A DNA stretch of 64,000 bases. It comes from Cyclobacteriaceae bacterium (GTDB lineage: Bacteria; Bacteroidota; Bacteroidia; Cytophagales; Cyclobacteriaceae). Shown here piece by piece: positions 18,345 through 61,276 of the stretch; within the stretch, counting starts at the first letter, position 1, and the number at the start of each line of letters is the position of its first letter. The translations under genes and the position numbers were made by a program. The notes beneath the pieces are model-generated. The model saw only the letters and a program-made list of their open reading frames with translations, was not told the origin of the DNA and ran no database searches. The DNA is taken from NCBI GenBank assembly GCA_034523095.1, contig JAXHKU010000017.1, forward strand, positions 5,641 to 69,640. Direction: 5' to 3'.

Positions 18345-19231
18345 TTAGCTTTTCAGCATAATAAGTGAATTAAGATATGAATACGAATTGCGGTGAAAAA
18401 CAATAGGAAGGAAAATACGAATGGAAATAGGATAATATTTCAGAGAGAAACTTGAATGAGGCCCTGGACAAATGATTGGCCAAGTAGAGGTAGCGGTGGG
18501 CTTTGAATTGGGACATTGACCGGCCGAGAAATTTCTGATGTCAGCATCCGCGTTTACAATTTCAATACTTTTTTTAATACGGCGAATGAGTTGATGTTGA
18601 TTAAAATTAATCACACTGCGACCTCTGTGTTGCACCACATAGGCAGATATTCTATTGGAATACCGCAGAGGAAAAAGACTCGCCAGTTTCAGCCAAAGCA
18701 AATAATCTTCAGAGCCAATAATGTCTGGATCTTCATTGAATTGATGTTGCTCTAGAATATCCTTTTTAACAAAAACCCCTATGCAGCTCAGGTGGTTGCC
18801 GGTGATCAATGACTGATTTATATTGCCTTTACGCCTATGTTCTTTCCTGAGAACCCTCCCCGCTTCATCCCTGATTTCATAAGCAATGTGAAACCACTCA
18901 GGTCGATTGTATTGCTTTATTAATGTTAGGGCTTCATCTAGGTAATGAGGATACAATTCATCATCGCTATCCAAAAAAGTGATGTAATCCCCAGCAGCCT
19001 GCAGAATGCCAAAATTGCGCGCGATGGCCCGCTCTTCATTTTCTTTTTAAAGTATTTGATGCGCGGATCTTGAATAGATGAAATAACCTGCTCGGTATTG
19101 TCAGCACTTCCGTCATCGATAATGATTATTTCAAAATCAGAATAATGCTGATCAAACGCCGACTGGATTGAGCTTAAAATCCGATCTGCGCGGTTGTAGG
19201 TAGGGATGATGATGGAGAATTTAACCGACAT
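18345..19231 (-). pseudogene. Glycosyltransferase family 2, frame-broken
   Basis: The N-terminus is MSVKFSIIIPTYNRADRI..FEIIIIDDGSADNT (ORF 18938..19252, ATG at 19231). A shift at the T5/A5 run 19044-19048 joins ..ERAIARNFGILQAAGDYITFLDSDDELYP (ORF 18345..18974). The C-terminal ~60 codons look out of frame too. Confidence 0.75.
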
Positions 19232-19405
19232 AATGTAAAAGAGTTGGTGCAAGAACCAAGGTCAGACGATAGTCTGGCCGTATTATCCTTCGAAACCAGT
19301 CAGTAAAATGTGATCTAACACCCAAACACTCACAGAACTGATACAGATAAAACCCAAATAGCAAATTTTACTTTCAATTTTAAAAAGGGGGTTTCTACCA
19401 GATAA

Positions 19406-22075: not shown

Positions 22076-22087
22076 GGGCTGTAGTTA

Positions 22088-23147
22088 TTAATTATGTGAA
22101 ACGGCTTTCATGAAGTTCTTGCGAAATAGTTCAATAGCGTTATTTTCAGTATAAGAAGAGGCCACCATCTTACACTGTCGAGACAGACAAAGTTTATCTT
22201 CGGCTGAAAGTTTAAAAAACCATTTTATCCTTTCAACAATCATATGCTCATCTAGTGGCACTACCAAATCTTCAGAAACCTGGCGCACACATTCCTTCGT
22301 TCCTGTCCATTCCTGAAACAATTGGAACAATACCAGCCTGCATTGCTTCATTTACAGTGATTCCCCATGCATCACCTCTTGCCGTATGTAAATAAATGGC
22401 TGCCCCTTCCAGAAAACTCGCCAAAGATTCTATGACACCGACAAAGCGGACTTTCTCAGGATTATGCATACTAGCCACAAGGTCTGTCTTTCGGATAGAA
22501 TCCCATTCTCCTGCAATATCAAAAACTACATCATACCCCTCGGTGATAAGGCAGATCAACTGCCCGTACCATAAGATCTAGGCCTTTATACCATAATCTC
22601 CAGGAGGCCCCAGCATTACCTATAAATACAATTCTCTTGCTTGCTACGTCATACTTTACCGATGTCAATTGCTTTATCCTTTCTTCAGAAACACCATTAA
22701 TTCCAGTAAATATGAATTTGTGCTTATTAACAATTCTATTGACTAAGGCGGACTTCATTCTTTCCAATGCAAATCCAAGCGGAATACTGCCGGTATGCCC
22801 ACGAATTTACCGCATGAGAGTCGGGAGTAGTACCTGGAATAAATGAAATAAGGAGATTCATCATCCACTAAGGCAATTAATTTAATTTTCCCTAAGCTGA
22901 GAATTTTAGATAAAACCAATGTAATTCTGAGACCCTCGGTGAGTACAATACATTTCTTATAATGTATGAAGTAAAAGGCATTTATAAACCATGCGAGATA
23001 TCTTATTGGTGCCGAATAATGCCTGTCGTGCCATCTGAACCACGGGTCTTCATAGGTAAAATGATTTGTGACAGAAGCACCATACTTGGCGTGTAAAGGA
23101 TGACCGGAAGGTCGACCATGAACAAATATCACTTTTTGACTGCTCAT
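22088..23147 (-). pseudogene. Glycosyltransferase group 1/GT4-like gene in four frame segments
   Basis: Co-linear ORFs 22755..23147, 22531..22767, 22272..22559 and 22088..22351. The third carries HTARGDAWGITVNEAMQAGIVPIVS (an EX7E-type GT1 region). Confidence 0.65.
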
Positions 23148-24327
23148 ATTTCAAAGCCGGCATAATTCAGATTACTCTCCAGCCGACTAAAGTAGTGTTC
23201 TAATGTATAATGGCTCATTACTTTTTGTCTCGCTTTCTCCCCCATTTCGGCCAAATATTCTTTGTTATCTATCGCCCAGGAAATGGATTCGGCTACAGCT
23301 TCAGGTGTATTGCTGTCGAGTATATATCCATCTATACCATGTTCAATGATGTCCGGGGCGGCGCTGAAACGGCTACCGATAACCGGCAGACCGTGTGCCA
23401 TTGCCTCCAGAATCACCATTCCGAAAGCATCGTTTAAGGAGGGAAATATCAAGGCATCAGCATCGCTGTATATTTTGGATAATTGTTCTTTATTTACCGG
23501 TCCGGTAAAAGTAATGTTTTCAGGGCAAGGTTGTATAAATGGTATTGCCTCTGGCAATATTTTCCCAACCAAAACAATCTCCAGTGCTTCATTTGTAAAA
23601 CCTCTTATCGCTTTTATAAGTGTATGTATCCCTTTCAATAGTTCAAGCCTTCCCACAAACAATAGCCGTAGCTTTCCGTCAACGTGCTTCATTTTTTGCA
23701 AATTGGAAAAATTATTAATTTCAATTCCCAGTTGACATAGGAGGATTTTTTTCTCATCGAAACCACGGCTCACAAATGTCCTCTTACAAAAGAGGAATGC
23801 ACCTGAATAAAATCGGCTGTACTGCACTCCTCCTTCATTCGCTTTATTACCCCACGTGAAAAACGGCTATATCCGGGTTTTATGAGGATATCTGGATCTC
23901 GGTAGAAACTCTCATTTACACCCATCCAGTAATCTACATATGGCATAGGATGCTCAAGAATACACTTGCCACCAAATTTTTTGTTCTTCTTCATGCTCCA
24001 TAATGATGTCTGTGACCAGGCGATCAGTATTTACAGGCTTAGCAAAACATGCTGAACAAAGTGATCGTAATACCGCAATAAAAACGACTTGTGTAACTGA
24101 CGGCCATCAGTGAGCCGCTCCAATCGGTGATTAATCCCATAGGCGATATAACTGGCGAAGTCGTATAACCAATTATCTTTCCTGTGCCAAACACCTTTAT
24201 ATCGTTGCTACAACTAAAGTTTGGCCAGTAACGCAGAGAGTAAAACGACTTTACCTTTTTGATCAAAAAACTGATAAATAGATTCCGAATGAGAGCCGGC
24301 CTGAACTAAAAAAAATGGCATATTCAT
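23144..24327 (-). pseudogene. Glycosyltransferase family 4 in at least four frame segments
   Basis: The C-terminal ORF 23144..23827 carries LLFVGRLELLKG and IFPSLNDAFGMVILEAMAHGLPVIGS. The upstream pieces 23770..23994 and 24039..24266, plus a short N-terminal piece from ATG 24327, are in different frames. Confidence 0.7.
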
Positions 24328-24384
24328 ATTAACTCAGCGTCGCTTTTATAATATCAGGATTTTTCCTGCCGTTGAAATAGGTCA

Positions 24385-25323
24385 TCACTTCGCTATCAAT
24401 ATCCGCCACCTGACATTTATCATAATTAATATTTTCCATGCTGCCTTAAGACGGGCTTTCCTGTCCATTAATTCGCTTTCACGAGTCATGTCTACCGGAA
24501 AAAACATGGCTTTTAACCCAAGTCCCAATACAAGTATCAAATTGTCTAGCGTATTGATCAAAAAGTTAATAAGTGCATTATTGTATCCATAGTGATCTTC
24601 CCTTATCCTCCACTCGTGACTGCAACTCAGTAATCTGGCCATATAAACTCTATTTGGGTCTCTCTTGAAACTGACACTTCCATGATGAATAATTTTAATA
24701 TCCGGTACGACGAATATCTCAAACCCTCTATTGACAATTTCCTTACAAAGTGGATACTCCTCCCAAAAAAGAAATGAACTTTCATCGTAAATATAATTCT
24801 GAGGTAGAGCAGCCCTTCTGATCATCATCCTGTGCGAAAAATAAAATCCACTTTTGCGGCAATTTGGTTGATTGAAGGGTTTTTGGCTTTTTGGGAAAAA
24901 ATAACATTCAAAAAATGAAGACGGGTATACTTTTCGAAGATTGTGACGGGTAATGATTCCCTGCCCTGATTAATAGTGTTTAGGCCTATCTTTCCGACAT
25001 TGGGGTGAGCCTCCATGTAATTAATGCATCGCTCAAATGTATTCTTGAAAACCTCTGCATCCGGATTAAATGAAAAGATATACCTCCCTTTTGACTCCCG
25101 GTATGCCTGATTCATGGCTCGCGCAAATCCAAAATTAAAGTGATTAAAAAACCATTTTACTTGCGGGTAATCGAGTGCTAAACTTTGGGTATTGTCAGTC
25201 GAATTATTATCTACAACTGATGATTTCAAAAGAAAAGCTTGTTTCACTTTCCAAAATTGAAGTTAGGCAATCTTTTAGAAAACTTCGCGTATTATATGAA
25301 ATTATGAGGACGCTTAAATCCAA
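24385..25323 (-). pseudogene. Glycosyltransferase family 2 in three frame segments
   Basis: The N-terminal relic is LDLSVLIISYNTRSFLKDCL (about 25323 downward). It is followed by ORF 24825..25247 (VVDNNSTDNT..FGFARAMNQA) and ORF 24385..24828 (MMIRRAAL..EEYPLCKEIVNRGFEIFVVPDIKIIHHGS). The start codon is uncertain. Confidence 0.7.
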
Positions 25324-25464
25324 TTCCTTCTATTAAAAACCATCAAATCATTTTTAGAAGGTGTTGGGTATCATGCAAATTTAAAATTCCTCTCCTGTTG
25401 TTTTCCAGATCAAAATAGGATAGACTTTTTAACATTTTCTATGGATAAGTGACTCTTTGAGATA

Positions 25465-26034
25465 TTACGTTTTTCCTTCGTTCGTGTAATTACACCTCAG
25501 GCCATAATCACAGTCGGCGACAAACACTTCAAGTTCCGGATGAGTTTGGTTTAAGAAATAGATCGCCTTCCATACATCTCCATTCCAAATACCTTTGTAG
25601 CCTCTTTTTTGCCAGTCAAGGAAGGAACAAGCAGCTTCCTCACTTGCTGGATTGCAATCGTGAACAATTATGAAACCATTTTCTTCAAGATACTTGAGGG
25701 CGTTCAGATACTATCCATTTAGGGCAAGCTCAAACTCATGCATCCCATCGATCAATACAATGTCAACCTTGCTCTTTTTAAATACTTTATCCGCCTCCTT
25801 TTCGAAAAATTCGTCACTGGTTGTTTGACTGGAACATTGGTCCACGCAACATGCTGAGATCCGATTTTTAACTGATTTCCTTCGAATCCAAACTTAAAAT
25901 TTGGGTCAACTGCGATTTTTCGATTGCATTTGACCATAAAAAAGACATTCCCGTCCCTGACCCCAATTTCTAAATAACTTTTTCAAATGATGCTTATTGA
26001 TCAATCCTTTCAAATTCAATTGATATCTTTCCAT
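25465..26034 (-). pseudogene. Class I SAM-dependent methyltransferase with frame breaks and an in-frame TAG
   Basis: The minus strand reads VDIVLIDGMHEFELALNG*YLNALKYLEENGFIIVHDCNPASEE..WNGDVWKAIYFLNQTHPELEVFVADCDYGL, with TAG at 25711-25713. The upstream segments (MERYQLNLKG.. / LEIGVRDGNVFFMVKCNRKIAVDPNF) are in other frames. Confidence 0.6.
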
Positions 26035-26103
26035 GAAATTCAGTCGATATTTTATTCTAATAACAAACGCAGCGTCCCCTTCCAAAAAGACACATCACCA
26101 TAG

Positions 26104-27259
26104 TCATAGGCACCATGCTTCAACATTTGGCTTGCCGTTATCAATGATTTTCAAAAGTGCATATATCCTCATGCTCATCAATTCGTGCAACATGGGGTTG
26201 ATTGAAAAATGTATATATCGAATAACTCCTCGAGCAAGTATCCCAGGTTCAATCATAAGTGTCATTGTTTTTCTTAAGACATTTGACTCCATTGAAAAAA
26301 TTCTCCTTTTCGCTGAATTCAATATTATGACAAACAGGTCACACTTCATCGCCTCCTCCTTAAAATCGATTTCAAATTCAATAAACACTGGATTGCTAGA
26401 TCAAAAATTCACGACAATTATTTCCTTGCTCATCTTTTAAACGGATTGATTTGAAATACAATGGACTGTCTTTAGACTTATGCTTTGATCAGGTGTTCGT
26501 TGGAACTTTTATTATCCGAGTTGTAAAATCGAATTGATTGTAATGGTGGTGCATCAAGCCCTACTATCCCGGATTTTAATACCATCACGCGGACGCAAAG
26601 TTTACTGATTGCGTTCAGGTCATGACTCACAAATAAAATAGTCCTCCCTCCTTCTTACTCACCTCATCCATCTTACCAGACACTTCTTCTGGAACTCGGC
26701 ATCGCCCACTGCCAGGACTTCATCGATGATGAGTATTTCGGGTTCTAAGTGGGCGGCGACAGAAAAGGCAAGCCGCACCGTCATGCCGCTGCTGTAATGC
26801 TTCACGGGGGTGTCGAGGAATTTCTCTACGCCGCTGAAATCGACAATTTCATCAAACTTAGCTTTGATTTCGCGCCGCTTCATGCCCAGAATAGTACCGT
26901 TGAGGTAGATATTTTCCCGACCCGTGAGTTCTGCATGAAACCCGGTACCAACCTCAAGCAGGGACGACACACGGCCATTGATCTCAAATCGGCCGGTAGA
27001 AGGACTCGTGATGCGCGAGAGTATCTTCAGAAGTGTGCTTTTTCCAGCCCCATTTCTTCCAATAATGCCCACGGCTTCCCCTTTCTTGATTTCAAAATTA
27101 ATATCGCGCAAAGCCCAGAACTCTTCTTTCATGGCCGGCATTCTTCCCAAATAAATCTTGTAGCTTGTCAGAAAAAGCATTTCTTAGATCACCGGCTTTC
27201 TTATGGCCGATGATATATTTTTTCCCCAGGTTTTCTACTTTGACCGCAATATCACTCAT
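26104..27259 (-). pseudogene. wzt: Polysaccharide/O-antigen ABC transporter ATP-binding protein, frame-broken
   Basis: ATG 27257-27259 overlaps the wzm stop (ATGA). The N-terminus MSDIAVKVENLGKKYIIGHKK shifts near 27130-27150 into ORF 26659..27180, which carries Walker [10 protein letters not shown], signature [12 protein letters not shown] and Walker [13 protein letters not shown]. Further shifts follow FQKKCL. The extent of the C-terminal domain is uncertain. Confidence 0.7.
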
Positions 27260-48919: not shown

Positions 48920-51900
48920 TCAGACTACTTTTTCCACTTCCCCATGCTCCGTATAGAGCAGGTAACCTTCCACGGATTCAAAGCCCATCTCCTTCATCAA
49001 ATTGGTATAATAAGTCACCTGCTGCCTGTCCTTGTCGCGAGCCTGTCCGGTTTTAAAGTCAATAATAACTGCCTTTTTTCCATCAATGATCACACGATCC
49101 GGACGCCTGGCACGGCCTGATCCGGAAATGATTTCCGCTTCACGCTTCACAGACCAACGGGGATGAAACCAATCCAGTACCACGGCATTGGAAAAAATGC
49201 GATTTATCTGAGCAGTTGCCTTACCGAACTCTTCATCCGTCAGGCTTTGATTGCTGCGTCGATCTTCAAGCGTTGCGAGCGCTTCTTCCTGCCCTGATAC
49301 ATCCGCTAAAAGTTCGTGAATCAGCAATCCGTAAGAAATCCGCGCTTTCCAATCCGGTATTGTGCCGGCATCAATATCCTGCGCACCTGACCGGATTTGC
49401 ACTTTTTCGCGCCAATCCGCCGACCGGTAACCGTGGGGTTGAATTTCCTTAACGGAATCGGTTTTTTTGGTGGAATGTCTTTTTTGTCCGTCCAGCCGGT
49501 AGCAGTTGTTATGGAAATCATCCCTGTAATTCAGGAGCTTCAATGGCGATTCGGTCAATTCACAGAGTCTTTTTACAGACATGGCAACGAGATCGCCACT
49601 CGTGGTTAGTTTATCGGATTCCGGCGGGCAGTTTATCTGCAGGTACGATTCGGCGCGGGTCGTCGCCACATACAGAAGGTTCAGATTATCGATATTTCCC
49701 ATGATCATCTCCTGGTAATAGTTCCTGGCAAAATAGGTATTCTCCAGGGCAGACGAATACTTCAACGGGAATTTACCCTTACCGGCATAAGGCGCTTTTT
49801 CAGTTTCACACCAAATGGTAATGCCATGCCTGGGCTCGGGTGATAACTGCCATCCGCAAAACGGAATAATCACAGCGCCAAATTCCAAGCCTTTGGATTT
49901 ATGAATCGTCAATACACGAATGGCATCGCCGGTGTCCATTGCTGCCAATGATTTCAGATTTCCGTCCTCATCCCACCAGGCCAGAAAGTCATTGAGATTT
50001 TTTGTGCGATCAGAAAAATATTTCAATACCTCATTTTGAAATGCCTCTATATAGCCGCGCAAATTCTCCTGATTCAAATCAAAAAGCCGGATGAATTTCT
50101 CGACCATATCAAACACCGGTTGTGACGCTATGGTTGTACAAATCTGTTGAAAATCCAGTGGCAGGCTGCTTTCTGACAGAATGATATCCATGTCAGGATG
50201 ATCGCTTTCGGCTTTCCTGACCAGATAATGACTGTATTGAATATCTGCCAGAACCAAATTGTCGGTCGGGTTGGCGCAATACTTCAGGCAGTTTACGAGC
50301 AGACGCACCGCCGGAGACTTTCCGATGAAAAGCGACTCCCCCGAGACAGCATCGTACGAGTAGCCGGGTCGCGCATTCATGGAGTTTTTATGCTTTAAAA
50401 GTTGCTCAATGACCATCCTCCCTTCCTCTGCCCTGCGCACCAGTATGGCTATTTCTCCAGCAGAATAGCCCAAATCCTGTATCCGCTCAACATCCGCAGG
50501 AAGCTGCTCCAGCACCAGGTCATTCCATTTTTTATCGGTATCCTTTTCAAATACCTTTATTAATACACTACCTCCATGGCTCGCTGATTTTATCGCCGAT
50601 ATATCCTGCCTTGCTCCTTCGTATAGTTTCCGGATATCTTCGACGGAATTGTTAAGTTCCGATTTAATGGTCGCATCAGGTAATTCAATGGCAGAATAGA
50701 GATTATCCGCGACGAGACCCGGCGCTATGTGGTAGAGGGCGTTATTAAACTCAACGATGTTTGCCTCGCTGCGCCAGTTGGTTTGAAGGTTTTTCGTCAC
50801 TACGTAGTTGCGACTCAGATCCTCCTCCACCTGGTGCAAAATAAGACTCCAGTCGCCTCCGCGCCATCGGTAAATCGACTGCTTTCCATCCCCAACCAGC
50901 AGGCTTTTATGGCCTTGCGACAAACCATTTTCTACCAGTGGTTTGAAATTTTTCCACTGGAATCCGGAGGTATCCTGAAACTCATCGATGAGATAATGGC
51001 GGTACCAGGACCCGGTCTTTTCATATATAAATGGCGCTTCGTTTTCTGCAATGATTTTCTGCAAAAATACAGGCACATCCGCAATGAGCATTATGTCGTT
51101 TTGCTGTCTGTACGCTTGCAACTTGGCAGCAAGTTTGGCCAAAATGCCATACAGGTAAAAGTTGCCCATAACCTGAACTGCTGAAAAATAGGCCTGATGA
51201 TGTTCCTCAAAGTAATTCATCAATGCGCCAGCCTTCGCCATCAGACCTGCGTTGAGCGCCAAGCGGATAGTAACAATCTGCGGTGAATTTTTTGTAAACC
51301 ATTTCGATTCATCGTGAACGGCTTCGATGAAACGCTTGCCGGGAAGAAAATCCTTTTTCTGACTGACTTTTAAAAAATAGCCGGCAGGGCCACTCATTTT
51401 ATTGGAAAAATCATCGATAGAAAGTCGATGATCGCTCACAATGGTCAATGCTTCATTCGCCATTTGGCTCATCTCCTTTTCGAACCGGTTCCTGATTTTT
51501 TTAAGTTCATCCAGAAACCTGCGATAATCAGTGGCATCGCCATCACCGGAATTAACATTTGTCTCCTTCAATAGCTCCGAAGCAAATTTTTTGATTTTCC
51601 GACGAATGTCCCATGCTTCTCCACTTTCTACAGCGTCCGTGGAAAAGTCGATCAGCCACTCGGTGAGCTCCTTGTCAGGCCCTACGTCTTCGATAAGCAA
51701 ATCGATAACCTCATCCAGCACTTTGCCCTGATCAAGTTCAACGCTGAAATTGCCCATGAGGCCCAGCTCTTTGGCAAAGGCTTTGACAATTTTCTGGAAG
51801 AATGCGTCGATGGTGCTGATGGACAACTGCGAATAATTGTGGAGAATATTGTCCAGCACCTTGGCGGCTCGCTCCATCACCAGGTCCTCGGTGCATCCAA

Positions 51901-52147
51901 CTTTTTCCCTGATGTCTTTCATAAGGCCCGGGTCGCTATTGATCGACAGCTTTTCCAGGTTACCGATGATCCGTTCCTTCATCTCCCGCGTAGCCTTGTT
52001 GGTGAAGGTTACTGCAAGGATTTTGTTGTACAAGCCGGGGTCTGCAATACAAAGTGAAATAAACTCCAGCGCAAGGCTATACGTCTTGCCCGAACCGGCG
52101 GAGGAGCGGTAGATGATGAAGCCGTTTTTTTCAGAATCGGGATTCAA
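48920..52147 (-). CDS. UvrD/Rep-type helicase with a C-terminal PD-(D/E)XK nuclease (AddA-like subunit)
   Basis: Intact 1075 aa ORF with Walker A SSAGSGKTYSL, motif II IDEFQDTS, TIHKSKGLEF, and C-terminal RPDRVII..AVIIDFKTG. Confidence 0.8.
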   Translation of the reverse strand: MNPDSEKNGFIIYRSSAGSGKTYSLALEFISLCIADPGLYNKILAVTFTNKATREMKERIIGNLEKLSINSDPGLMKDIREKVGCTEDLVMERAAKVLDNILHNYSQLSISTIDAFFQKIVKAFAKELGLMGNFSVELDQGKVLDEVIDLLIEDVGPDKELTEWLIDFSTDAVESGEAWDIRRKIKKFASELLKETNVNSGDGDATDYRRFLDELKKIRNRFEKEMSQMANEALTIVSDHRLSIDDFSNKMSGPAGYFLKVSQKKDFLPGKRFIEAVHDESKWFTKNSPQIVTIRLALNAGLMAKAGALMNYFEEHHQAYFSAVQVMGNFYLYGILAKLAAKLQAYRQQNDIMLIADVPVFLQKIIAENEAPFIYEKTGSWYRHYLIDEFQDTSGFQWKNFKPLVENGLSQGHKSLLVGDGKQSIYRWRGGDWSLILHQVEEDLSRNYVVTKNLQTNWRSEANIVEFNNALYHIAPGLVADNLYSAIELPDATIKSELNNSVEDIRKLYEGARQDISAIKSASHGGSVLIKVFEKDTDKKWNDLVLEQLPADVERIQDLGYSAGEIAILVRRAEEGRMVIEQLLKHKNSMNARPGYSYDAVSGESLFIGKSPAVRLLVNCLKYCANPTDNLVLADIQYSHYLVRKAESDHPDMDIILSESSLPLDFQQICTTIASQPVFDMVEKFIRLFDLNQENLRGYIEAFQNEVLKYFSDRTKNLNDFLAWWDEDGNLKSLAAMDTGDAIRVLTIHKSKGLEFGAVIIPFCGWQLSPEPRHGITIWCETEKAPYAGKGKFPLKYSSALENTYFARNYYQEMIMGNIDNLNLLYVATTRAESYLQINCPPESDKLTTSGDLVAMSVKRLCELTESPLKLLNYRDDFHNNCYRLDGQKRHSTKKTDSVKEIQPHGYRSADWREKVQIRSGAQDIDAGTIPDWKARISYGLLIHELLADVSGQEEALATLEDRRSNQSLTDEEFGKATAQINRIFSNAVVLDWFHPRWSVKREAEIISGSGRARRPDRVIIDGKKAVIIDFKTGQARDKDRQQVTYYTNLMKEMGFESVEGYLLYTEHGEVEKVV

Positions 52148-52199
52148 ATGTTTGATGGTATTTTGTTCGAATATAAAAAATGCATGGCTACGTTTTCAC

Positions 52200-54300
52200 C
52201 GTCCACAATACATATATTCAGAATAAGGCGGTAAGTCACCGATTACGCAGAACTAAAAATTTTATATGTGATCTCATAAATGCCCCAATACTGACTCGAA
52301 AAGGGATATATGACCTTAGTGACGCACCTGGTTCCTAAGCAAAAGAAGGGCAGTTTTTTGGTGAACTGTAAGATTGTGTATATAATAGTGACCTTATAAT
52401 ATGGCCCCCCCAAATCTTGTCACCATCACCATCAATATCTATAACCTCCATGGTATTCCACTGATTTTGGGCCGCTTCTGGAATGGAGTATGGGATAAAT
52501 CATATAGCCGCCATTTGAGGTATATAATGCCGTTCCGGATTTTTCTAAATTTGAACGAAATATCATCCCGATCCTGCGCTACCCTCGACCTAGATACTTG
52601 TAAAATTATTTGAATATAATGATGAAAATGGAAATTGTCACCGTAATAAATAATAAAAGCTAGTTGAAAAAATGAATATGGACCCTAAAGAAATGTATCC
52701 ATCCGATATAATACGTGTGCCGCCTCTTATACTGAGTCTGGCCGCGGCCCGATTCCTAGGGAATAATACCTGTCTGAAATTTATAATAAAAAAAAAAAAA
52801 ACCCAAACAATAACCATTTTATTTAAGCGTATAATGAAAAAAGACCGGGGGCGGACCGCAAAACAAGGAAATTCTCCATAATTATTTATTCAATATAAAT
52901 CTGTTAGACCTAGTTTTTTGAGGCCCTTGTACCTGAGTGTATTTCATTTTTCATATACACCCATTCCCATTATTTGGTGGATGATAAATATATATATAAA
53001 ACCTGATGGAAATTAAATAGCTACACTCGCAAGCCCTTAATTAACCCACCGCCTATACCGCTGAACCATATTCCATAAAACATCTAATTCAAACATCATT
53101 AATACCATCTTCCCCAAAAATATAAATTTTATTATATCAGCCCATTACATAAATAAAATGAGCGAAACAACAACCCGAAAACCCGCCACCGCCCCCTCAC
53201 CGGGGCCTAGAAACCAAAAAAAAAATTATAAATTACAAAATGTGTCTCCCTTTAATTTAATTGTCCTATGGGAAACGGTCTTTTTATTTACCATCGCGAT
53301 TACGAATCCTTTAAAAATAAAATGGATTGCCTAAGAGTCACCTTAATGGAATCTATTTTATCTCCAATGCCATCACAACAGGTAAAGATGATAATACCTC
53401 TCATTCCTAAATGTATTTGTCCTACTCAATATTATTACACCGTGCCATCGTATTTCCTTGCTTTCCAACAATTTACTATAAATTTCTGATTCTTTCTACT
53501 TCTTTTGAATATTTTAAAAAAGGCCTCAATTAATTGTTTACACATATAGGTCGCCATTAAAAATGCTAAAAGATAAAGACCTTATTGAATGTTAATTCTC
53601 GTATTAAATATATTTTGCCTTAGTCGCTTTAACAATTATATTTTTCCTTAACCGTCCTATACACTGATATGGGCATCCCTGCCCTCGATTATGTCAATTT
53701 AAATTAAATAAAAATACCCACATTATTATAAACATATTGCCCAGGGAGGGACAAATTTTAAATTAAAGTTCCATCTCCGATTAAAAATAATGTTGAAAAT
53801 AATCTTTAAATATATAGGTAGGATAGCCGTCTTTATTAACATCACCGGTGGCGATGCCTAACCAAACCCTTCATACACTATTCCTGCCTCTAGGGTTACG
53901 TTCGAAAAGGTGCCATCACCGTTGTTTAAATTATTACTCACCTGCATATTTTGCTATACGTAATTAATAATGCTTTATCTATCCGCCTATACAACCCCAA
54001 TGTCGTCTGCTTGCCATATTCCTCCTTTTCTAAGCGCCCCCTGTCCTTTCCAACTACCGAGGGCAAAAAAGTCTTCCCTCTTTATATCCAACGCCCTACC
54101 CATTGCCCTCGGTTAATCCCGGAGTTGGAATATTGTTCCTCTGATTAAACCCGCGCCCTCCCACACTTGAAATCCCCCGCTTGGTTACATTGATGTATCC
54201 GGCTCCCACGATACCTGTTCTCTTACCCCCCCACCCCAGACCACTATTACTCTCCGAGGGAGCTCATCCCGTATGGAGAATCGATAATTCGCATCTTCCG
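52200..54300 (-). pseudogene. Heavily decayed VCBS/FG-GAP plus UnbV/ASPIC-type gene relic
   Basis: Minus-strand fragments include NNGDGTFSNVTLEAGI and GIATGDVNKDGYP (about 53820-53960) and IHLGM..GDKIDSIKV (about 53300-53450). Stops occur in all frames. The boundaries are approximate, and I could not read anything below about 53250. Confidence 0.45.
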
Positions 54301-54344
54301 GACCGAGTCTGAAAGGGTATACATGTTGTGCCCACGTTTTTCAA

Positions 54345-55813
54345 TTACGCCCGTTGCAATTCAGTAGTCACGTTACCCCAACGCTGCAAGTCGAAATACC
54401 TGTGACCTTCCATGCCCAATTCAAGTTTTCTTTCCATTTGAACCGCTTTTATGGCTGTCGCTTGGTCAGCAAATGGGGTATACAAACTAATCGAATAATT
54501 GGCTGCATTAGATCCATCAGTTTCCTTCACAAACCCTGCAGGATTTGCTGCACGTGCACGTACAGTTAATTTCTCAAGACCCCAATCACCTTGGCCAAGA
54601 ATGGCTTTACATTCGCAATCAAAAGAATACGTCAGAATACGATCATTCTTAACCATTCGCTGTATAACCAACGTCCAGTTTCCAACTTCCGTATTTGACC
54701 TTCCTGAGACTTCTTATAACTTGCTTCTACCATTAATGGCCCTAATATCTGGTCACGTATCCAGTCTTTGCCGTATGTGGTCCCCAACCCCAATACGGGA
54801 TACCTCTTCTTCCTACTGCCCAGTAGGCGTATGCCTGCATCCTAATCCGCAACCCCTGGTCACTCTTCACATCTTATATAAAATTTCCCCAGTTTTTTAA
54901 AATTCCGAGTCGGATTCCGAACTCCGGTCTCCTCCCTTATATGGAAGTTTAGTACTTCGCCCCATCCGCCATTCCAAGGCCACCATCATTCACAAGTACT
55001 GAACCGTATAAATCGATTCGACACCATTTCGGTTTTCAATGTCAAATATCTCCGTATTTCGCCATCAATCCAGCTTTCTGACCTACAGTTTGTCCCTGTT
55101 GCTGCCACATCCTGCAAAACCGGTAAAGCAGCGGTGTACCACTGCTATCCGTTCATCTGCATTTTGCTTTAACCATAAACTTTTGCAACTGTGCCATTGA
55201 ATCGGCCAACCTGACCCATATTATTTGGAAATTCTTCCTGATCAATCAGCTGATATAATTGGCCGACATCCGTATCATTGGTTACATAGCCAAATCATAG
55301 TTTCATCCACATAAAAAATACCTTTTCCTGTAGCCATCGGCCCACATTTTATAGCTTAAATGATACCAGCCTCTCATTTTGCCTAGTAAAAAATAGCTTG
55401 TTTCGCTTGTCATATTTCCTGCGTCTGCTGCCAATTTAATTACTTAGCATTTACACCTTGAAATGGCATCATAAATACCCCTCCATCGCAAATTAAGGTA
55501 TGGGTTTGTAGGTGCCTCGAATATTTTAAGTGGGTTGATGTAGTTGGTCTCCTGAGTAGTTCCCTTATTCGCTTCCATCCCCCGAATACTTCCAAATACC
55601 CATGGAAGATGCTGCTTCCCCAACCACACTTATCGGTAATTCCATCGAGCATGGAGTAAGCTCCGAGAAGGAGACCATCAATGCCTTCCGCCGTCGCCAG
55701 AACTGATCCGTCCAAAGCACCATTTGGTGTGATTTCAAGAATTTTTCTTTACAGCGGTAATACTTCCAAATACTATGCAAATACTAAAGCCGGATATAAT
55801 AAATCCTTTTCAT
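54345..55813 (-). pseudogene. RagB/SusD-family lipoprotein gene, decayed
   Basis: The start MKRIYYI.. is at 55813, followed by LEITPNGALDGSVLATAEGIDGLLLGAYSMLDG (ORF 55440..55715), NPYLNLRWRGIYDAISRC (55444..55629) and the C-terminal block AIKAVQMERKLELGMEGHRYFDLQRWG (54345..54671). There are many frame shifts between them, and the last ~40 codons are unreadable. Confidence 0.7.
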
Positions 55814-55834
55814 AATTCTTATCAATTAAAATAA

Positions 55835-56700
55835 TTAAAATGACATGTTTATACCAACCAGATACTGTTACAGCCGGCACGTTACCCCTGTCGACCCAAG
55901 GTTGTTATCACCCCTGATTCACCAATTGTGCCTCCTCAGGATCCATTCCTGAATAGCCTGTAAAGTAAAGGTTAACTCCCTGAACATAAAGCGTAAATTG
56001 GTAAATACATTTCCTAAAGTATTTTAGGTAATGTGTACCCAAGTTGTAATTGCTTAAGTCTTAAAAACGAACCGTCTTCTACATAATAACTGTTGATTGT
56101 GTGTTCGTTGAGAAATTTGACTTGTTAGAAGCTTTTGGAACGTCGGTATCGGTTCTGTCTGGGCGCCATGCTGAATACAAGAGGTCCTTACTCTTTGTCC
56201 CTTCAACACCATTTAGTAAACTCCCCATCATATGCTAAAATTTTCCATCCAAATAAGATTAATCAAATGTAAAATGGTGCGCAAATGTCACTTTTGCCCC
56301 AGTTTGTTATTTTCATTTTCATACTGGAAAAAACCAGGCTCTGCGCCATCCTGTACTGGCAATTCAGCATCCAGTACATACTTGCCTTCACTGTCCACGG
56401 TAAAATCAGACTCCGGGAATAAACCAACAACATTATAACCGAAAAATTCACCTAAGGAGTTGCCTACCTGGCTTCGGCTGAAAGCACCGATTCTTGATCC
56501 ACCAGCATCAAAATAATTGTACCCCGGAGCGATTTTTACGATCTCATTTTTATAGGTTGTCAATGTAGCATTGGATAAATAATGTCACACCTTGCGATAA
56601 ATTAATTGATATATACCCATATTTTTCATCTCACCAATATTAAGGCGGGTGCGCTTTGACCCGAACTCGGGGATCGGCTTGTCCGGTGTAAATATTTTCT
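55835..56700 (-). pseudogene. SusC/TonB-dependent receptor gene, C-terminal relic only
   Basis: The minus strand reads ..YVEDGSFLRLKQLQLGYTLPKIL*.., with in-frame TAG at 56014-56016, then GYSGMDPE and a terminal GINMSF-stop at 55835. ORF 56288..56563 is the preceding barrel segment. There is no plug or N-terminal half before the divergent gene at 57733. Confidence 0.65.
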
Positions 56701-57100
56701 CACCCGTTCCCACACATCCCCTAGCATCCAATCACACCCTGACCAAACCCCGAACTGCATCTCGACTTCAATGTGCGAAACTCTAACTGCCCTGACCACC
56801 GGCCCGCCAAACTGCCCATCACCCCCAAGAAATTGCCTACCCTTACCAGACCTCCCACAAACCAGTCAAACGCTGACCCAACGCATCCCCACGCCTAGGG
56901 GACCATATCAAAATCCTACACATGTACCAAAAAACAACCTACGCGCCAAAAAGACCTCCACCTCCGCTAAACATCCAACAAGAACCCAGGGCACCAATTT
57001 CCACCCCACCCGTCCTCCCCATACACCCACACCTCCCTATAACTACACAAAACCAAAAGAGTAACACACGCCCAAAATATATTTCGAAAAAAAGCATAAT
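56700..57100. other. A+C-rich low-complexity tract
   Basis: My hand count over 56761-57060 gives about 42 T and 33 G in 300 nt, so A+C is about 75 percent on the plus strand. Confidence 0.8.
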
Positions 57101-57732
57101 TATTTAATTAAAAATAAAAAGATAACTCCCTATAGTTTGCTTAGTTTGTTTGTGTTAAGCATCCGCCTTATCTAGGATAAAAAAACACTCAAAATAAAAA
57201 TCATATTTCCCATAAATGATAATCAGGGAAAAGAACAACAACTAAAAACTTTTGTGATAACGACTTAGTGTGAGTGTAAAATTTCCATGCATAGGCACCT
57301 TGATTTCGGGTTAATTAGCTTTAACAATATAAAGTTAGAATTAAAATTTTATGATATACAAATGTTAAATGTAATATTTACACTTAGTCATTTTGACTAT
57401 ATCTATTAGATAACGACTGATACGGGATCTACATATATAGATTCACGTTAACATGAAAACTAAACGAGGTTAAGTCTCCAGTTTGTTAAATCAAAAAAAT
57501 ATTCATGTATTAGCGTTTTGACGAACAACCCCTTCACAATTCAGCGCGTCAGGTTTTCAGCAGTAAAAGTGCGGTGCGCTCCTGGCCTGATTCATTACTT
57601 ACTGTATTTCCATTCAAATAATCCAAGTCTAGATTAAGATAAAAATCCATTCAATTGACAACCACGGCCTCTATGATTAGATGAATAAATTGGCCATTTT
57701 TGAACCTGTTCACTTTTACTAACTTTCTTTGA

Positions 57733-60700
57733 ATGAGAGCTGTTTTACTACCATTTTTGCTGCTTATCGGGCTTTTTATCACCGGTTGCTATCAGGCGGG
57801 GAACAATAAGAAATTTTCTGTGATCTCGCCCGAGCGTTCGGGAGTTCATTTTTCAAACGATATCCAGGCCACCGACACGTTCAATGTTATTGATTTCTAT
57901 TATATCTACAATGGTGGCGGGGTTGGTATTGGGGATTTTAACAATGATGGACTTCAGGACATTTATTTTTCAGGCAACCAGGTTTCTAATAAAATGTACC
58001 TTAACCAGGGAGACTTCCAATTCAAAGATATTAGTAATGAAGCGGGTGTTGAAGCAGGCGACATCTGGTCGCAGGGTATAGCGGTGATTGATATCAATAA
58101 TGACGGCTGGACCGATCTGTATGTCTGTGCTTCCATATATCCCGATTCGGTAAGACGTCTCAACAAGCTATATATTAACCAAGGCCTGAATGCGGACGGT
58201 ATTCCTACGTTCAGCGAGGAAGCTGTCCAATGGGGCATTGCGGATCATGGCCACTCTGCCAATGCTGCCTTTTTCGACTTCGACAGAGACGGCGACCTGG
58301 ATCTGTTTATCATTAATAATTTCATGGATACCAAATTCCCCAGCGAGTTCAGACCAAAAGTGGTCGATGGAAGTTCAGTCAATTCTGATAAGTTATACCG
58401 GAACAACGGCAATGGCACATTCACGGATATCTCAGTCAGCGCCGGAATACTCGTGGAAGGCTACAGTCATGGCATTGCCATCCGTGATCTGAATATTGAT
58501 GGCTGGCCGGATGTGTATATCACTAATGATTTCCTGCCCAATGATATCCTGTATATCAACAACCAGGACGGCACATTTACCAACAAGGTGTCGGATTTTC
58601 TGAAGCATCAGTGTTTTTCGGCCATGGGCAACGATATAGCCGACATTAACAACGATGGATTACAGGACATTTTTGCCCTCGATATGCTGCCGGAGATGAA
58701 TTACCGTAAAAAAACCATGCTCCTGAAAAGCACGCCGATGAACCAGATCAATTACGACAAGTTCAATTACGACTATCAGTTTATCCGGAATATGCTTCAT
58801 CTGAATATGGGACCTGATGAAAAAGGAAATATCCACTACGCTGAAATCGGTCTTCAGGCCGGTGTTTTTGAAACGGACTGGAGCTGGTCGCCACTATTTG
58901 CCGATTTTGACAATGACGGAAACAAGGATTTGTTTATCGCCAACGGATTCCCCGGCGACGTCACCGATATGGATTTTGCGCACTATATGAACCGGTACAA
59001 AAGCCTGGTAAGTCGGCGGTCTGACCTGTTTGATACAATACCCGAAGTACTTATCGCCAATTACATATTCAAAAACAATGGCGACCTCACTTTTACCAAA
59101 ATGACTGACGAATGGGGCCTTGATGCAAAAACTTTTTCCAATGGCGCCGCCTATGCTGATTTCGACAATGATGGTGATCTGGACCTTGTGACCAACAATA
59201 TCAACCAGAAAGCGACACTCTTTAAAAACAACACGGTGGAGAGTCAGAAAAAAAAGGACGAAGTAAATTTCCTCAGGGTCCAACTGGAAGGCGGCGATAA
59301 TAACCGGAATGCCCTTGGCGCGAAGGTTCTCTTATATACCGGCGGTCAAATGCAATTTATCGAATACAGCCCTTCCCATGGTTTTATGTCGAACATGGAT
59401 GGTGTCATTCATTTTGGCATCGGGGCCAACAAGAATGTTGATTCACTGGTGGTATTATGGCCCGCCGGTGGAAAATCGGTAACGCGGGATATCCCATCCA
59501 ACCAACACATCACACTGAAATATGACAATGACACAACCGATAGTCCGTTAGCGCCTTATATTTTAAGACATCAGGATAAATGCATTTCAACGATTACCGG
59601 GTGATAAAAAAATCGGTTTTCTTCATCAGGAAAAAGAATTGTACGATTTCAACCTGCAATACACCATACCGCATAAACTCTCGCAATACACACCCGGAGT
59701 GGCCGTAAGCGATATCAATGGTGATGGGTTGGAGGAGATTTATATTGGTGGAAACAAACTGAGCCCTGGCGTTTTTATGATTCAAACCCCTGAAGGAAAT
59801 TTCCAGTCTGAAAATCGCATCATATCCAGGGACACCCTGGGCGCCACCGACATGGGCATTCTTTTTTTTGATGCTGATAACGACGGCGATGATGATTTAT
59901 ACCTGGTCAGTGGTGGTATAGAATGGGCAGCAGGTTCATCGTCTTACAGAGACAGGCTCTACATCAACGATGGCAAGGGGTACTTCAGTTATAAGGAGGA
60001 CGCTTTACCGGATCTGAGAAAATCAGGTTCATGCGTCAAGGCATGTGATTTTGATAAGGATGGTGATCTGGATCTTTTTGTTGGAACCCGGTCTAAACCC
60101 TGGGAGTATCCGATGAGTGAACCAAGCGCCATACTTATAAATGATGACGGAATATTTCGCGAAAACACCAGGGCGATTTGCCCCGGCCTTACCGACAATC
60201 TGATGGTCACCGATGCCATCTGGACTGACTTTGACAATGATTCCTGGACCGACCTGATCGTCGTGGGTGAATGGATGGGAATCAATTTTTTAAAAAACAA
60301 TCATGGGACTTTTACAGATGTTTCGGGCGAATTTTTGAAGGAGCCTTCTGCAGGCTGGTGGAATTGCATCACCGGCGCTGACACCGACAGTGATGGCGAT
60401 ATCGACTACATCTGTGGTAACCTTGGCCTGAACAGTATTTTTAAAGGTGACGCGCAATACCCGTTGTCCATTTATGCATCTGACTTCGACCGCAATGGTA
60501 TGGTTGACCCTATCGTTGTGCGGTATAATAGTGATGAGAATTTCAATAAAAAACCATTTCCTATCCATACCCGCGACGCTATGCTTCAGCAGGTAAATTT
60601 TCTTTTCCAGCGGGTAAAAACCTACAACGCATTCGGTAAATCAACGATTCATGACCTATTTACTCCGGAGGAACTGGAGAATGCATATCACCTGGAAGGG

Positions 60701-61276
60701 ACTTATTTCAAATCGGCCTGCCTGATAAATGATGGCGCGGGTGAATTTCACCTTAAACCTCTTCCGAATGAAGCGCAGATCGCACCCATATTTGGCATAC
60801 TTCCCCAGGATTTTAACGGTGATGGAAATACCGACCTGCTCCTGATTGGTAATGATTACTCCATTGAATTAATGACCGGCAGAATAGAGGCCTCACCGGG
60901 GTTGTACCTCAGCGGCAGAGGTGATGGCGAGTTTACATTCCATAAACCCTACCAATCGGGTTTCCGTGTTACCGGTGATGCAAAAGGCATTGCTGCTTTA
61001 ATCGATAAAGATGGACGGGAGATGATACTCACCACACAAAATAAGGATTCTCTCATCGTGCATGCATGGCCAACAGACGGTTCCATAAAGACCATAGATC
61101 CCGGAAATGCTGCGTGGGCCGAACTGGTGATGAATGATGGCAGCAGAAAGAAAGAGGAATTTTACCATGGCGGCACTTATTTATCGCAATCCACAAGACG
61201 AATGATCCTGCCGAATAACTGCAAAAAGATCATTCTCCACTATGCCAATGGTGATTTTAAAGAAATCGGCCTCTGA
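57733..61276 (+). pseudogene. CRTAC1-like VCBS/FG-GAP repeat protein with an UnbV/ASPIC domain, lipoprotein; one frame break near 59560-59580
   Basis: ORF 57733..59604 (lipobox LFITGCYQ; FNNDGLQDIYF, DFDRDGDLDLFI; ASPIC block ALGAKVLLYTGGQMQFIEYSPSHGF..HFGIG..VDSLVVLWPAGG) and ORF 59639..61276 (second FG-GAP set) are joined by an open frame reading INAFQRLPGDKKIGFLHQEKELYDFNLQ. Together they give the usual ~1180 aa architecture. Confidence 0.75.

Follow-up and report, generated by a model that had tools for sequence, protein, structure and literature searches.

A deletion-riddled SusC-SusD locus in a Cyclobacteriaceae MAG: most likely an artefact of sequencing or assembly

Results

The relic operon and its intact orthologue

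The window, that is the whole 64,000-nucleotide stretch of the Cyclobacteriaceae contig JAXHKU010000017.1 that was analysed, contains a 5.4 kb region between a helicase-nuclease gene and a CRTAC1/ASPIC gene from which translatable genes are absent (Table 1). The original prediction had described it as an ORF desert, and the longest open reading frame in 52,148-57,732 indeed amounts to 133 aa (54499-54900, plus strand); no intact PUL gene was found there. Collinear tblastn matches and the Pfam SusD_RagB profile also bear out its identification as a susC-susD-VCBS/ASPIC array on the minus strand. With the proteins of an intact orthologue as queries, tblastn recovered SusC aa 735-1068, the whole of SusD, ASPIC aa 218-264 and FG-GAP aa 424-513, all collinear. 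The C-terminal third of SusC is its only recognizable portion and lies directly upstream of susD; its end (INMSF*) is at 55835 and the N-terminus of SusD (MKRIYYI) begins at 55813, both on the minus strand, as had been read. The SusD/RagB lipoprotein gene characteristic of a SusC/SusD PUL is present, though frame-broken: the matches span aa 9-540 of the orthologous SusD, the Pfam hit (E=5e-13) falls within 54345-54671, and the reading frame switches every few dozen codons. Part of this relic is deposited as MDZ7606985.1 ("hypothetical protein"). Among the factual statements made earlier on the desert, a single one had to be amended: the TAG at 56016-56014 exists, but it sits amid a small indel cluster, so that a plain point change to a stop codon does not account for it. 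The gene order SusC-SusD-ASPIC-FG-GAP is that of Bacteroidota SusC/SusD PULs with CRTAC1/ASPIC-VCBS (FG-GAP) proteins, from which the deposited tract differs in that every gene of the array is broken.

An intact collinear SusC-SusD-ASPIC-FG-GAP locus was found in a related Cyclobacteriaceae MAG (L007 and L001), where it occupies 12.2 kb compared with 5.4 kb here. A scan of genome contigs gave a single relative (85 %), its contig ending in the helicase; a metagenome scan with the orthologous SusD as query gave nothing above 70 % at the amino acid level, and an exact-protein look-up found no second, independent assembly of the same organism. All SusC domains are present in the orthologue, whereas here a G+T-rich tract (70-79 % G+T per 100 nt) stands in place of the Plug/CarboxypepD region. 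The compressed segment S6 retains collinear islands at 53469-53424, 53356-53338 and 53111-53093. Further upstream, the indel pattern of the intergenic region is one of ordinary non-coding divergence, and the adjoining ~150 nt would reflect either a difference in gene content or else extreme compression. The inserted T in the CRTAC1 gene divides it into two ORFs (MDZ7606987.1 and MDZ7606988.1).

Table 1. Features of the damaged locus, its flanks and a second damaged tract
Feature	Position	Strand	Evidence
Second tract with like damage, polysaccharide locus	22085..27150	-	Wzt ATPase read across three frames
UvrD/AddA-type helicase-nuclease, intact flank (MDZ7606984.1)	48920..52147	-	Pfam UvrD-helicase, UvrD_C, PDDEXK_1; zero indels vs L007/L001
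Clean intergenic stretch upstream of helicase; damage ends ~52255	52148..52254		No net indel vs L007 14881-14981
Deletion-riddled zone proper; orthologue of a 10 kb SusC-SusD-ASPIC-FG-GAP operon cut to 4.8 kb	52255..57093	-	Collinear L007 anchors
Last FG-GAP gene relic, aa 424-513 of 513-aa orthologue	52319..52559	-	tblastn, 64 % + 86 % identity, two frames
Compressed segment S6: ASPIC aa 265-1093 + FG-GAP aa 1-423, 3.9 kb to 1.3 kb	52560..53798	-	Affine alignment, z=6.1 vs shuffles
G+T-rich tract 2, orthologue similarity undetectable	52996..53268	-	Composition; z=1.2; repeats absent
ASPIC/FG-GAP protein relic, aa 218-264	53790..53926	-	tblastn, 86 % + 72 % identity, two frames
Compressed G-rich segment S5: ASPIC N-terminus + SusD-ASPIC spacer, 894 nt to 443 nt	53927..54350	-	z=4.8-5.5; ordered perfect 12-nt islands
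SusD relic, full length, ~290 nt short	54351..55813	-	tblastn, Pfam SusD_RagB, alignment blocks
SusC C-terminal relic, aa 735-1068; part deposited as MDZ7606986.1	55835..56695	-	tblastn, 65 % + 57 % identity
G+T-rich tract 1 at place of SusC aa 1-734, 2.2 kb to 0.4 kb	56700..57093	-	Similarity undetectable, z=1.4; repeats absent
SusC start codon + upstream intergenic region	57094..57488	-	Aligns to orthologue with insertions and deletions alike
~150 nt where relative has 1.7 kb split FG-GAP gene pair	57489..57637		Comparison with relative
CRTAC1/ASPIC flanking gene	57733..61276	+	Clean apart from one inserted T at 59577

Spectrum of the lesions

In 2.7 kb of alignable blocks, ~115 deletions were counted against 8 insertions, mostly of 1 nt, and the indel density reaches 4.2 per 100 nt, compared with 0.04-0.19 per 100 nt across 15.6 kb of flanks. 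The SusD relic alone carries more than 70 indels, and the last FG-GAP relic has 27 deletions in 417 alignment columns. Deletions per 100 nt follow a Poisson distribution, with a mean of 4.15 and a variance of 4.28, and no dependence on homopolymers is seen, with run-loss of 8.6 %, 8.6 % and 6.3 % at run lengths 1, 2 and 3; together these two properties fit per-base drop-out and not slippage. On the coding strand, 12 % of C and 6 % of G were lost (Fisher p=5e-4), an asymmetry that the reading of a single physical strand would produce. Third codon positions carry more than their share of the deletions, and sites beside mismatches carry fewer. Some segments are compressed 2-5 fold, with an estimated base loss of 50-80 % in the glitch-like parts. 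Natural bacterial pseudogenes, by comparison, have deletions and insertions in a ratio of 396:300 and ~4.6 indels per gene (PMC6054270), so that the insertion:deletion ratio is 0.76 in the curated set and 0.07 in the tract (115:8 against 396:300, binomial p ~1e-19).

Substitutions and selection

Substitution divergence from the orthologue is 14.5-16.5 % in the relic blocks and 14.6 % in the flank. The purifying-selection footprint is intact: third codon positions account for 147/183, 54/77 and 48/68 of the substitutions in the relic blocks (70-80 %), and for 266/380 (70 %) in the intact flank. This share, being that of intact genes, argues that no long period of relaxed selection took place and that more than 100 frameshifting deletions came without neutral substitutions; neither an excess of substitutions nor the near-uniform distribution over codon positions that neutral decay would leave is observed. 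The excess of C-to-T and A-to-G changes earlier proposed for the minus strand is absent, since the polarised spectrum is symmetric between the strands (C>T 29 vs T>C 33 and A>G 21 vs G>A 22 in the largest block, with similar values in the other blocks) and divergence is not raised. A symmetric spectrum against a homologue was precisely the outcome that the original prediction had named as incompatible with it.

Strand composition

The compositional anomaly itself is real in the deposited sequence. The plus-strand counts reported previously were reproduced (56 C and 15 G in 53041-53220; 14 C and 13 G in 61321-61380), and per-kb values of plus-strand GC skew lie between -0.22 and -0.32 from 53 to 57 kb, with a local minimum of -0.55 in the desert and a window mean of -0.05. 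The skew is partly native to the operon, the coding-strand value being +0.26 here and +0.11 in the intact orthologous operon. The C depletion is due to the deletion of C bases and to the two G+T-rich tracts, rather than to C-to-T changes. In these tracts similarity to the orthologue sequence they replace is undetectable (z=1.4 and 1.2), and a search of the tract for repeats and tandem repeats gave nothing relevant. A longest-common-subsequence test of the G+T-rich tracts as base-drop-out derivatives was powerless, as everything embeds.

Tract edges and a second damaged locus

The main tract has sharp edges, both of them intergenic and ~100 nt upstream of intact genes, with the 5' edge placed no finer than 57,094-57,637. 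Randomly positioned edges would fall in this way only occasionally, whereas it is expected for the edges of a strain-variable island. The second tract begins inside wzt, within the wzm-wzt operon, and this edge appears arbitrary relative to genes.

Discussion

A probable consensus artefact

Since the pattern of loss is unlike natural gene decay, an error of sequencing or assembly is the most likely source of the tract, ahead of any new biology. In the reading that we consider probable, the 5.4 kb desert is a poorly supported consensus patch over strain-variable loci, probably derived from single-strand long reads, and the organism itself most probably has, flanked by the helicase and CRTAC1 genes, an intact ~12 kb SusC-SusD-ASPIC-FG-GAP PUL. 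Accurate read support would have been scant or absent at the PUL and at the O-antigen/polysaccharide cluster, both of them strain-variable, and the gap at those loci may have been filled by a consensus of very few single-molecule (long) reads of essentially one strand. Such a consensus would have dropped ~4 bases per 100 nt in its better parts and 50-80 % in the glitch-like parts, with two stretches being noise, while the rest of the contig would be well supported or polished. The analysis demonstrates the orthology, the strand-biased and deletion-only lesions, the preserved selection footprint, the sharp edges, the second tract and the presence of the sequence in the public record, whereas the platform, the shallow coverage and the way in which the consensus arose are inferred. 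An assembly or consensus artefact was among the three options of the original prediction, whose locus identity likewise stands; the readings it preferred do not.

Long-read errors are mainly indels, become worse at low coverage and break up the ORFs of MAGs (PMC8103633; proovframe preprint 10.1101/2021.08.23.457338), and "glitches" and larger local inaccuracies of reads and assemblies have been documented (Wick & Holt, PMC6966772). The differences in the tract are likewise dominated by indels at a density far above that of the flanks. Long-read and hybrid metagenome consensus errors (PMC8103633; 10.1101/2021.08.23.457338; Kastor, PMC12007338; PMC6966772) share with the tract small-indel frameshifts, worsening at low coverage, glitches, the calling of short "hypothetical proteins" and flanks of high quality; the tract differs from them in the extreme density of its losses, at 4 per 100 nt and in places above 50 %, nearly all of them deletions, in its lack of homopolymer dependence and in its two G+T-rich noise stretches. 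Nor is the admixture typical of raw reads observed: insertions are at 0.3 % and extra substitutions are undetectable, against published values of 2-8 % and 2-5 %. The profile (~4 % deletions, 0.3 % insertions, ~0 extra substitutions, no homopolymer effect) does not match published raw ONT or PacBio data and counts against an artefact, which needs a consensus step that drops insertions and substitutions and keeps deletions. The artefact reading also does not fully explain the enrichment of deletions at third positions and their avoidance of mismatches, and it leaves the origin of the G+T-rich tracts unaccounted for. A putative parallel is a consensus collapsed across divergent strains or haplotypes, in which artefactual frameshifts are reported to arise where co-assembled sequences differ (PMC8445201): the PUL and the O-antigen cluster both belong to the classic strain-variable islands, the deletions favor variable third positions, but divergence to the relative is neither lowered nor mixed in the tract.

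If the artefact reading is correct, the public MAG record (locus tags U5K79_, MDZ7606985/986 and neighbours) holds at least two corrupted multi-kb tracts, which yield false pseudogenes, false "hypothetical proteins" and a spurious compositional anomaly, and the contig is ~7 kb too short. Comparison of substitution level, codon-position bias and insertion:deletion spectrum with an orthologue offers a read-free screen that separates corruption from true decay and could become routine.

Alternative explanations

The strongest competitor, which we nevertheless regard as unlikely, is that the DNA is real and that accessory loci underwent a recent local burst of strand-biased single-base and larger deletions through error-prone synthesis or repair, too recent for substitutions to have built up. 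The main tract stays within intergenic bounds as roughly one transcription unit, the neighbouring CRTAC1 gene is frameshifted too, as though loss of the entire PUL were under way, and the lesion profile is unlike raw long-read errors. Against this, no known bacterial process yields substitution-free, sharp-edged loss of 4-80 % of bases per site, the sequence in the two G+T-rich tracts is not derivable from the orthologue, the second tract begins within an operon, and natural pseudogenes have far fewer indels and far more balanced insertions and deletions. More broadly, we give very little credence to the deposited bases being correct, with hundreds of single bases (preferentially coding-strand C) lost without substitutions by localised deletion mutagenesis or in RNA-edited cryptogenes; a real sequence would imply an unprecedented bacterial mutational or RNA-editing phenomenon in operon-sized tracts of a free-living Cyclobacteriaceae.

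Old pseudogenisation, in which a long-abandoned PUL eroded under relaxed selection and deletional bias, is highly improbable. Mira, Ochman and Moran reportedly described natural bacterial pseudogene decay with such a bias in 2001. A bias toward deletion is established for bacteria (PMC6054270), and net DNA loss, broken frames and relics in their original order, here with big missing pieces, are common to natural decay and the tract. The few indels per gene, the many multi-base deletions and the relaxed codon positions of natural decay are, however, missing from the tract, where deletions are mostly of 1 nt; the codon-position test, with its flank-level divergence, refutes this reading and speaks equally against the old relaxed selection of the original prediction.

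Two further readings are barely credible. Deaminase-type hypermutation, with C-to-T and A-to-G changes of the minus strand, would agree with a C-depleted, G+T-rich minus strand, and is refuted by the symmetric polarised spectrum and by the divergence, which is not in excess. Alternatively, the genes could be functional cryptogenes whose transcripts regain the missing bases through insertional editing, as suggested by a purifying-selection footprint combined with the loss of ~1 base per 25 nt, C-biased, strand-specific and outside homopolymers. The C-biased single-base loss formally resembles C-insertion editing in Physarum, and the coding strand is short by a similar amount with coding constraint kept. 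The cryptogenes of Physarum and kinetoplastid mitochondria are, however, organellar, genome-wide, conserved among relatives and served by dedicated machinery, whereas the tract is limited to one or two loci, large parts of it are unrecognizable (for SusC and ASPIC, more than 70 % is either absent or beyond recognition), and the relative at ~85 % identity has ordinary genes. More than 1000 editing sites would be needed in one or two operons, and we know of no bacterial insertional RNA-editing system of this kind. A structured RNA locus (an rRNA operon or large ncRNA), suggested by the ~5 kb size and the ORF-free strand with G in excess of C, is discarded, as the sequence consists of protein-gene relics and yields no Rfam match at the gathering score and no ARAGORN tRNA.

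Corruption after deposition or in silico was ruled out, the desert ORFs being present verbatim in NCBI. A process delimited by the transcription unit, such as an RNA-derived copy, was down-weighted in view of the second tract starting inside an operon and the imprecise 5' edge of the main tract; the idea had been prompted by the extent of the deletion-only zone, which spans approximately from the SusC ATG to ~60 nt beyond the last stop codon.

Identity and composition of the ORF-poor tract

The tract between 52,148 and 57,732 is flanked by tightly coding DNA and contains no ORF longer than 133 aa (plus strand), which bears out the original observation of an ORF desert; its six-frame translation yields minus-strand peptides of SusC (C-terminal), SusD and FG-GAP/ASPIC proteins, with frame shifts every few dozen codons. 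The sequence landmarks read in these relics, the SusC end INMSF* at 55835, the SusD start MKRIYYI at 55813 and the TAG at 56016-56014, were all located as stated. The stitched SusD relic used as a query retrieved P0001, a protein encoded on contig L007 of a Cyclobacteriaceae MAG, JBGSYX01. For the flanking helicase, the closest relative lies on contig L001 of the same MAG, and L007 abuts L001 exactly (window 51791/51793), the two contigs ending and beginning at one point inside the helicase gene. The array on L007 is intact and comprises, in order, a CRTAC1/ASPIC gene, a split FG-GAP pair, SusC (1068 aa), SusD (585 aa), ASPIC/FG-GAP (1093 aa), FG-GAP (513 aa) and the start of the helicase. The relative and the window are collinear over at least 28 kb, and the distance between the two clean edges is 12.2 kb in the relative vs 5.4 kb in the window. 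Searches using tblastn and the proteins of the orthologous locus placed four relics in the correct gene order, and Pfam confirmed the SusD_RagB domain in the SusD relic. The assignment as a susC-susD-VCBS/ASPIC locus was right. The contigs of JBGSYX01 are named in MEGAHIT style, and in this MAG the FG-GAP gene preceding SusC is likewise broken, into ORFs of 388 aa and 109 aa (L007 2823-4290).

Features of the damaged tracts (window coordinates)
Feature	Coordinates	Strand	Evidence
SusC relic, aa 735-1068	56695-55838	minus	tblastn with the orthologue's protein
SusD relic	55790-54351	minus	tblastn with the orthologue's protein
ASPIC relic, aa 218-264	53926-53790	minus	tblastn with the orthologue's protein
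FG-GAP relic, aa 424-513	52559-52319	minus	tblastn with the orthologue's protein
G+T-rich tract 1	57090-56700	minus	no detectable similarity to the replaced sequence
G+T-rich tract 2	53268-52996	minus	no detectable similarity to the replaced sequence
Glycosyltransferase gene pieces	22088-23147, 24385-25247	minus	

The reported base counts (56 C and 15 G in 53041-53220; 14 C and 13 G in 61321-61380) were reproduced. Between 53 and 57 kb the plus strand has a GC skew of -0.22 to -0.32 per kb that drops locally to -0.55, and a scan of the window showed that equally extreme values cluster in the desert. On the coding strand, the skew is natively +0.11 in the intact operon vs +0.26 in this zone of the window, the excess being due to preferential loss of C and to the two G+T-rich tracts. 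A minus-strand rRNA operon as the cause of a 5 kb ORF-free, G-rich strand was excluded, as no Rfam family or tRNA gene was found. Opposite a G+T-rich tract, the C+A-rich strand contains a 97-aa Pro/Thr-rich ORF (56771-57064, plus strand; absent from NCBI) that is spurious and composition-driven and might pass for the gene of a low-complexity protein.

Substitutions and deletions relative to the intact orthologue

The comparison with L007 covered 2.7 kb of alignable blocks, with 2.7 kb of the intact flank as a control. Mismatches amount to 14.5-16.5 % in the large blocks vs 14.6 % in the flank, and 70-80 % of them (147/183, 54/77, 48/68) fall on third codon positions, matching the flank (266/380) and other intact genes. 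Therefore, the footprint of purifying selection is undisturbed and there is no measurable load of neutral substitutions. Of the mechanisms proposed originally, old relaxed selection is excluded by these codon-position and divergence tests, and deaminase-type hypermutation by a symmetric substitution spectrum (C>T 29 vs T>C 33; A>G 21 vs G>A 22).

This undisturbed footprint coexists with more than 100 frameshifting deletions in the same coding sequences. The alignable blocks carry about 115 deletion events (179 bases, mostly 1-nt) vs 8 insertions; by comparison, 2,689 nt of right flank contain a single indel, and the 12.9 kb block on the left contains 25 gap openings, intergenic regions counted. 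In curated natural bacterial pseudogenes, 396 deletions and 300 insertions were recorded, a load of about 4.6 per gene, and just a third of the deletions remove a single nt (PMC6054270); the deletion:insertion ratio of the desert differs from this set at p ~1e-19. The spacing of deletions is Poisson (mean 4.15, variance 4.28 per 100 nt), and homopolymer length has no effect: runs of one, two and three bases lost a base in 8.6 %, 8.6 % and 6.3 % of cases. Loss is asymmetric between strands for C and G (12 % vs 6 %, Fisher p=5e-4), and the difference between A and T is not significant. Within 54355-56652, third codon positions are enriched for deletions (64 observed vs 46 expected, p=0.004; by position 32/43/64 vs 44.8/47.9/46.3 expected from base composition), and 17 of the 179 deleted bases lie beside a mismatch vs 49.5 expected. 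This pattern may be partly an alignment effect, or may point to diverged strains having been collapsed into one consensus, with drop-outs at sites polymorphic between the co-assembled strains.

Between the preserved blocks, segments have shrunk to 20-55 % of the length of their orthologous counterparts and keep short collinear islands (z = 3.4-6.4 vs shuffles). The two G+T-rich tracts score z = 1.2-1.4 against the orthologous sequence they replace, and no repeat structure was found in them.

Edges of the main tract and a second damaged tract

On the helicase side, damage ends at about 52,255, 108 nt upstream of the helicase start, and the alignment to the relative shows no indels leftwards from there. 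On the CRTAC1 side, the sequence is clean down to 57,638, 95 nt upstream of the CRTAC1 gene, and is followed by about 150 nt where the relative has 1.7 kb; these 1.7 kb, which hold the split FG-GAP pair, are missing or no longer recognisable at 57489-57637 of the window. In the region upstream of SusC (57,488-57,094) the alignment contains ordinary insertions and deletions alike; the pattern of deletions alone becomes evident once the SusC start codon is reached.

Fragmented glycosyltransferase genes were also found on the minus strand of a polysaccharide/O-antigen locus (22085-27150), with no credible ORF in 25263-26659. In this second tract, the damage sets in within the wzm-wzt operon: the permease gene is undamaged, and the Wzt ABC ATPase (27259-26568) can be read only by combining three frames. 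Compared with L076 of the relative, it has net losses of 1 nt at about 26,680 (C) and about 26,656 (A), and its substitutions are again third-position biased (112/148).

Origin of the damage

Both PULs and O-antigen clusters typify the genomic islands that vary between strains. In a metagenome, support for such islands would be low or mixed; this would account for the damage to these two loci in particular and for the match between the edges of the main tract and those of the island. The errors of single-molecule sequencing are mainly indels, which become worse as coverage falls and fragment MAG genes (PMC8103633; proovframe preprint), and read or assembly "glitches" and larger local inaccuracies are documented (PMC6966772). 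Given these errors, the strain-variable nature of the loci and the lack of a known bacterial process that fits, the best explanation is probably a consensus patch that had little support and came essentially from reads of one strand, and the ORF desert is most likely not biological. Against a consensus patch stand the pure-deletion profile, which is unlike published raw ONT or PacBio profiles (proovframe preprint), and the two G+T-rich tracts, for which it does not account. A genuine burst of deletions in real DNA is unlikely: we know of no bacterial process that removes from 4 to >50 % of bases, sharply bounded and without substitutions. An editing-dependent cryptogene is extremely improbable.

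Public record and isolated frameshifts

The window is part of an NCBI MAG, Cyclobacteriaceae bacterium (deposited contig of 73,953 nt, proteins MDZ7606959-989, locus tags U5K79_); no second assembly of the same species was found in the collections searched. Two desert ORFs are present there verbatim as "hypothetical protein", namely MDZ7606985.1 (U5K79_15660; 55440-55715), a SusD fragment, and MDZ7606986.1 (U5K79_15665; 56288-56563), a SusC fragment; the tract therefore belongs to the public record and is not a later addition. Both entries are annotation artefacts of the corrupted tract. The practical value of the analysis is a warning on a probably corrupted MAG record and a read-free test that tells corruption from decay.

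Two isolated frameshifts lie outside the main tract. One inserted T at 59577 (GGA-AAA to GGATAAA, not a homopolymer) breaks the CRTAC1/ASPIC gene, a single continuous ORF in L007, into halves deposited as MDZ7606987.1 (57733-59604) and MDZ7606988.1 (59639-61276), and a GT2 glycosyltransferase at 18345-19252 is read in two overlapping ORFs (18345-18974 and 18938-19252).
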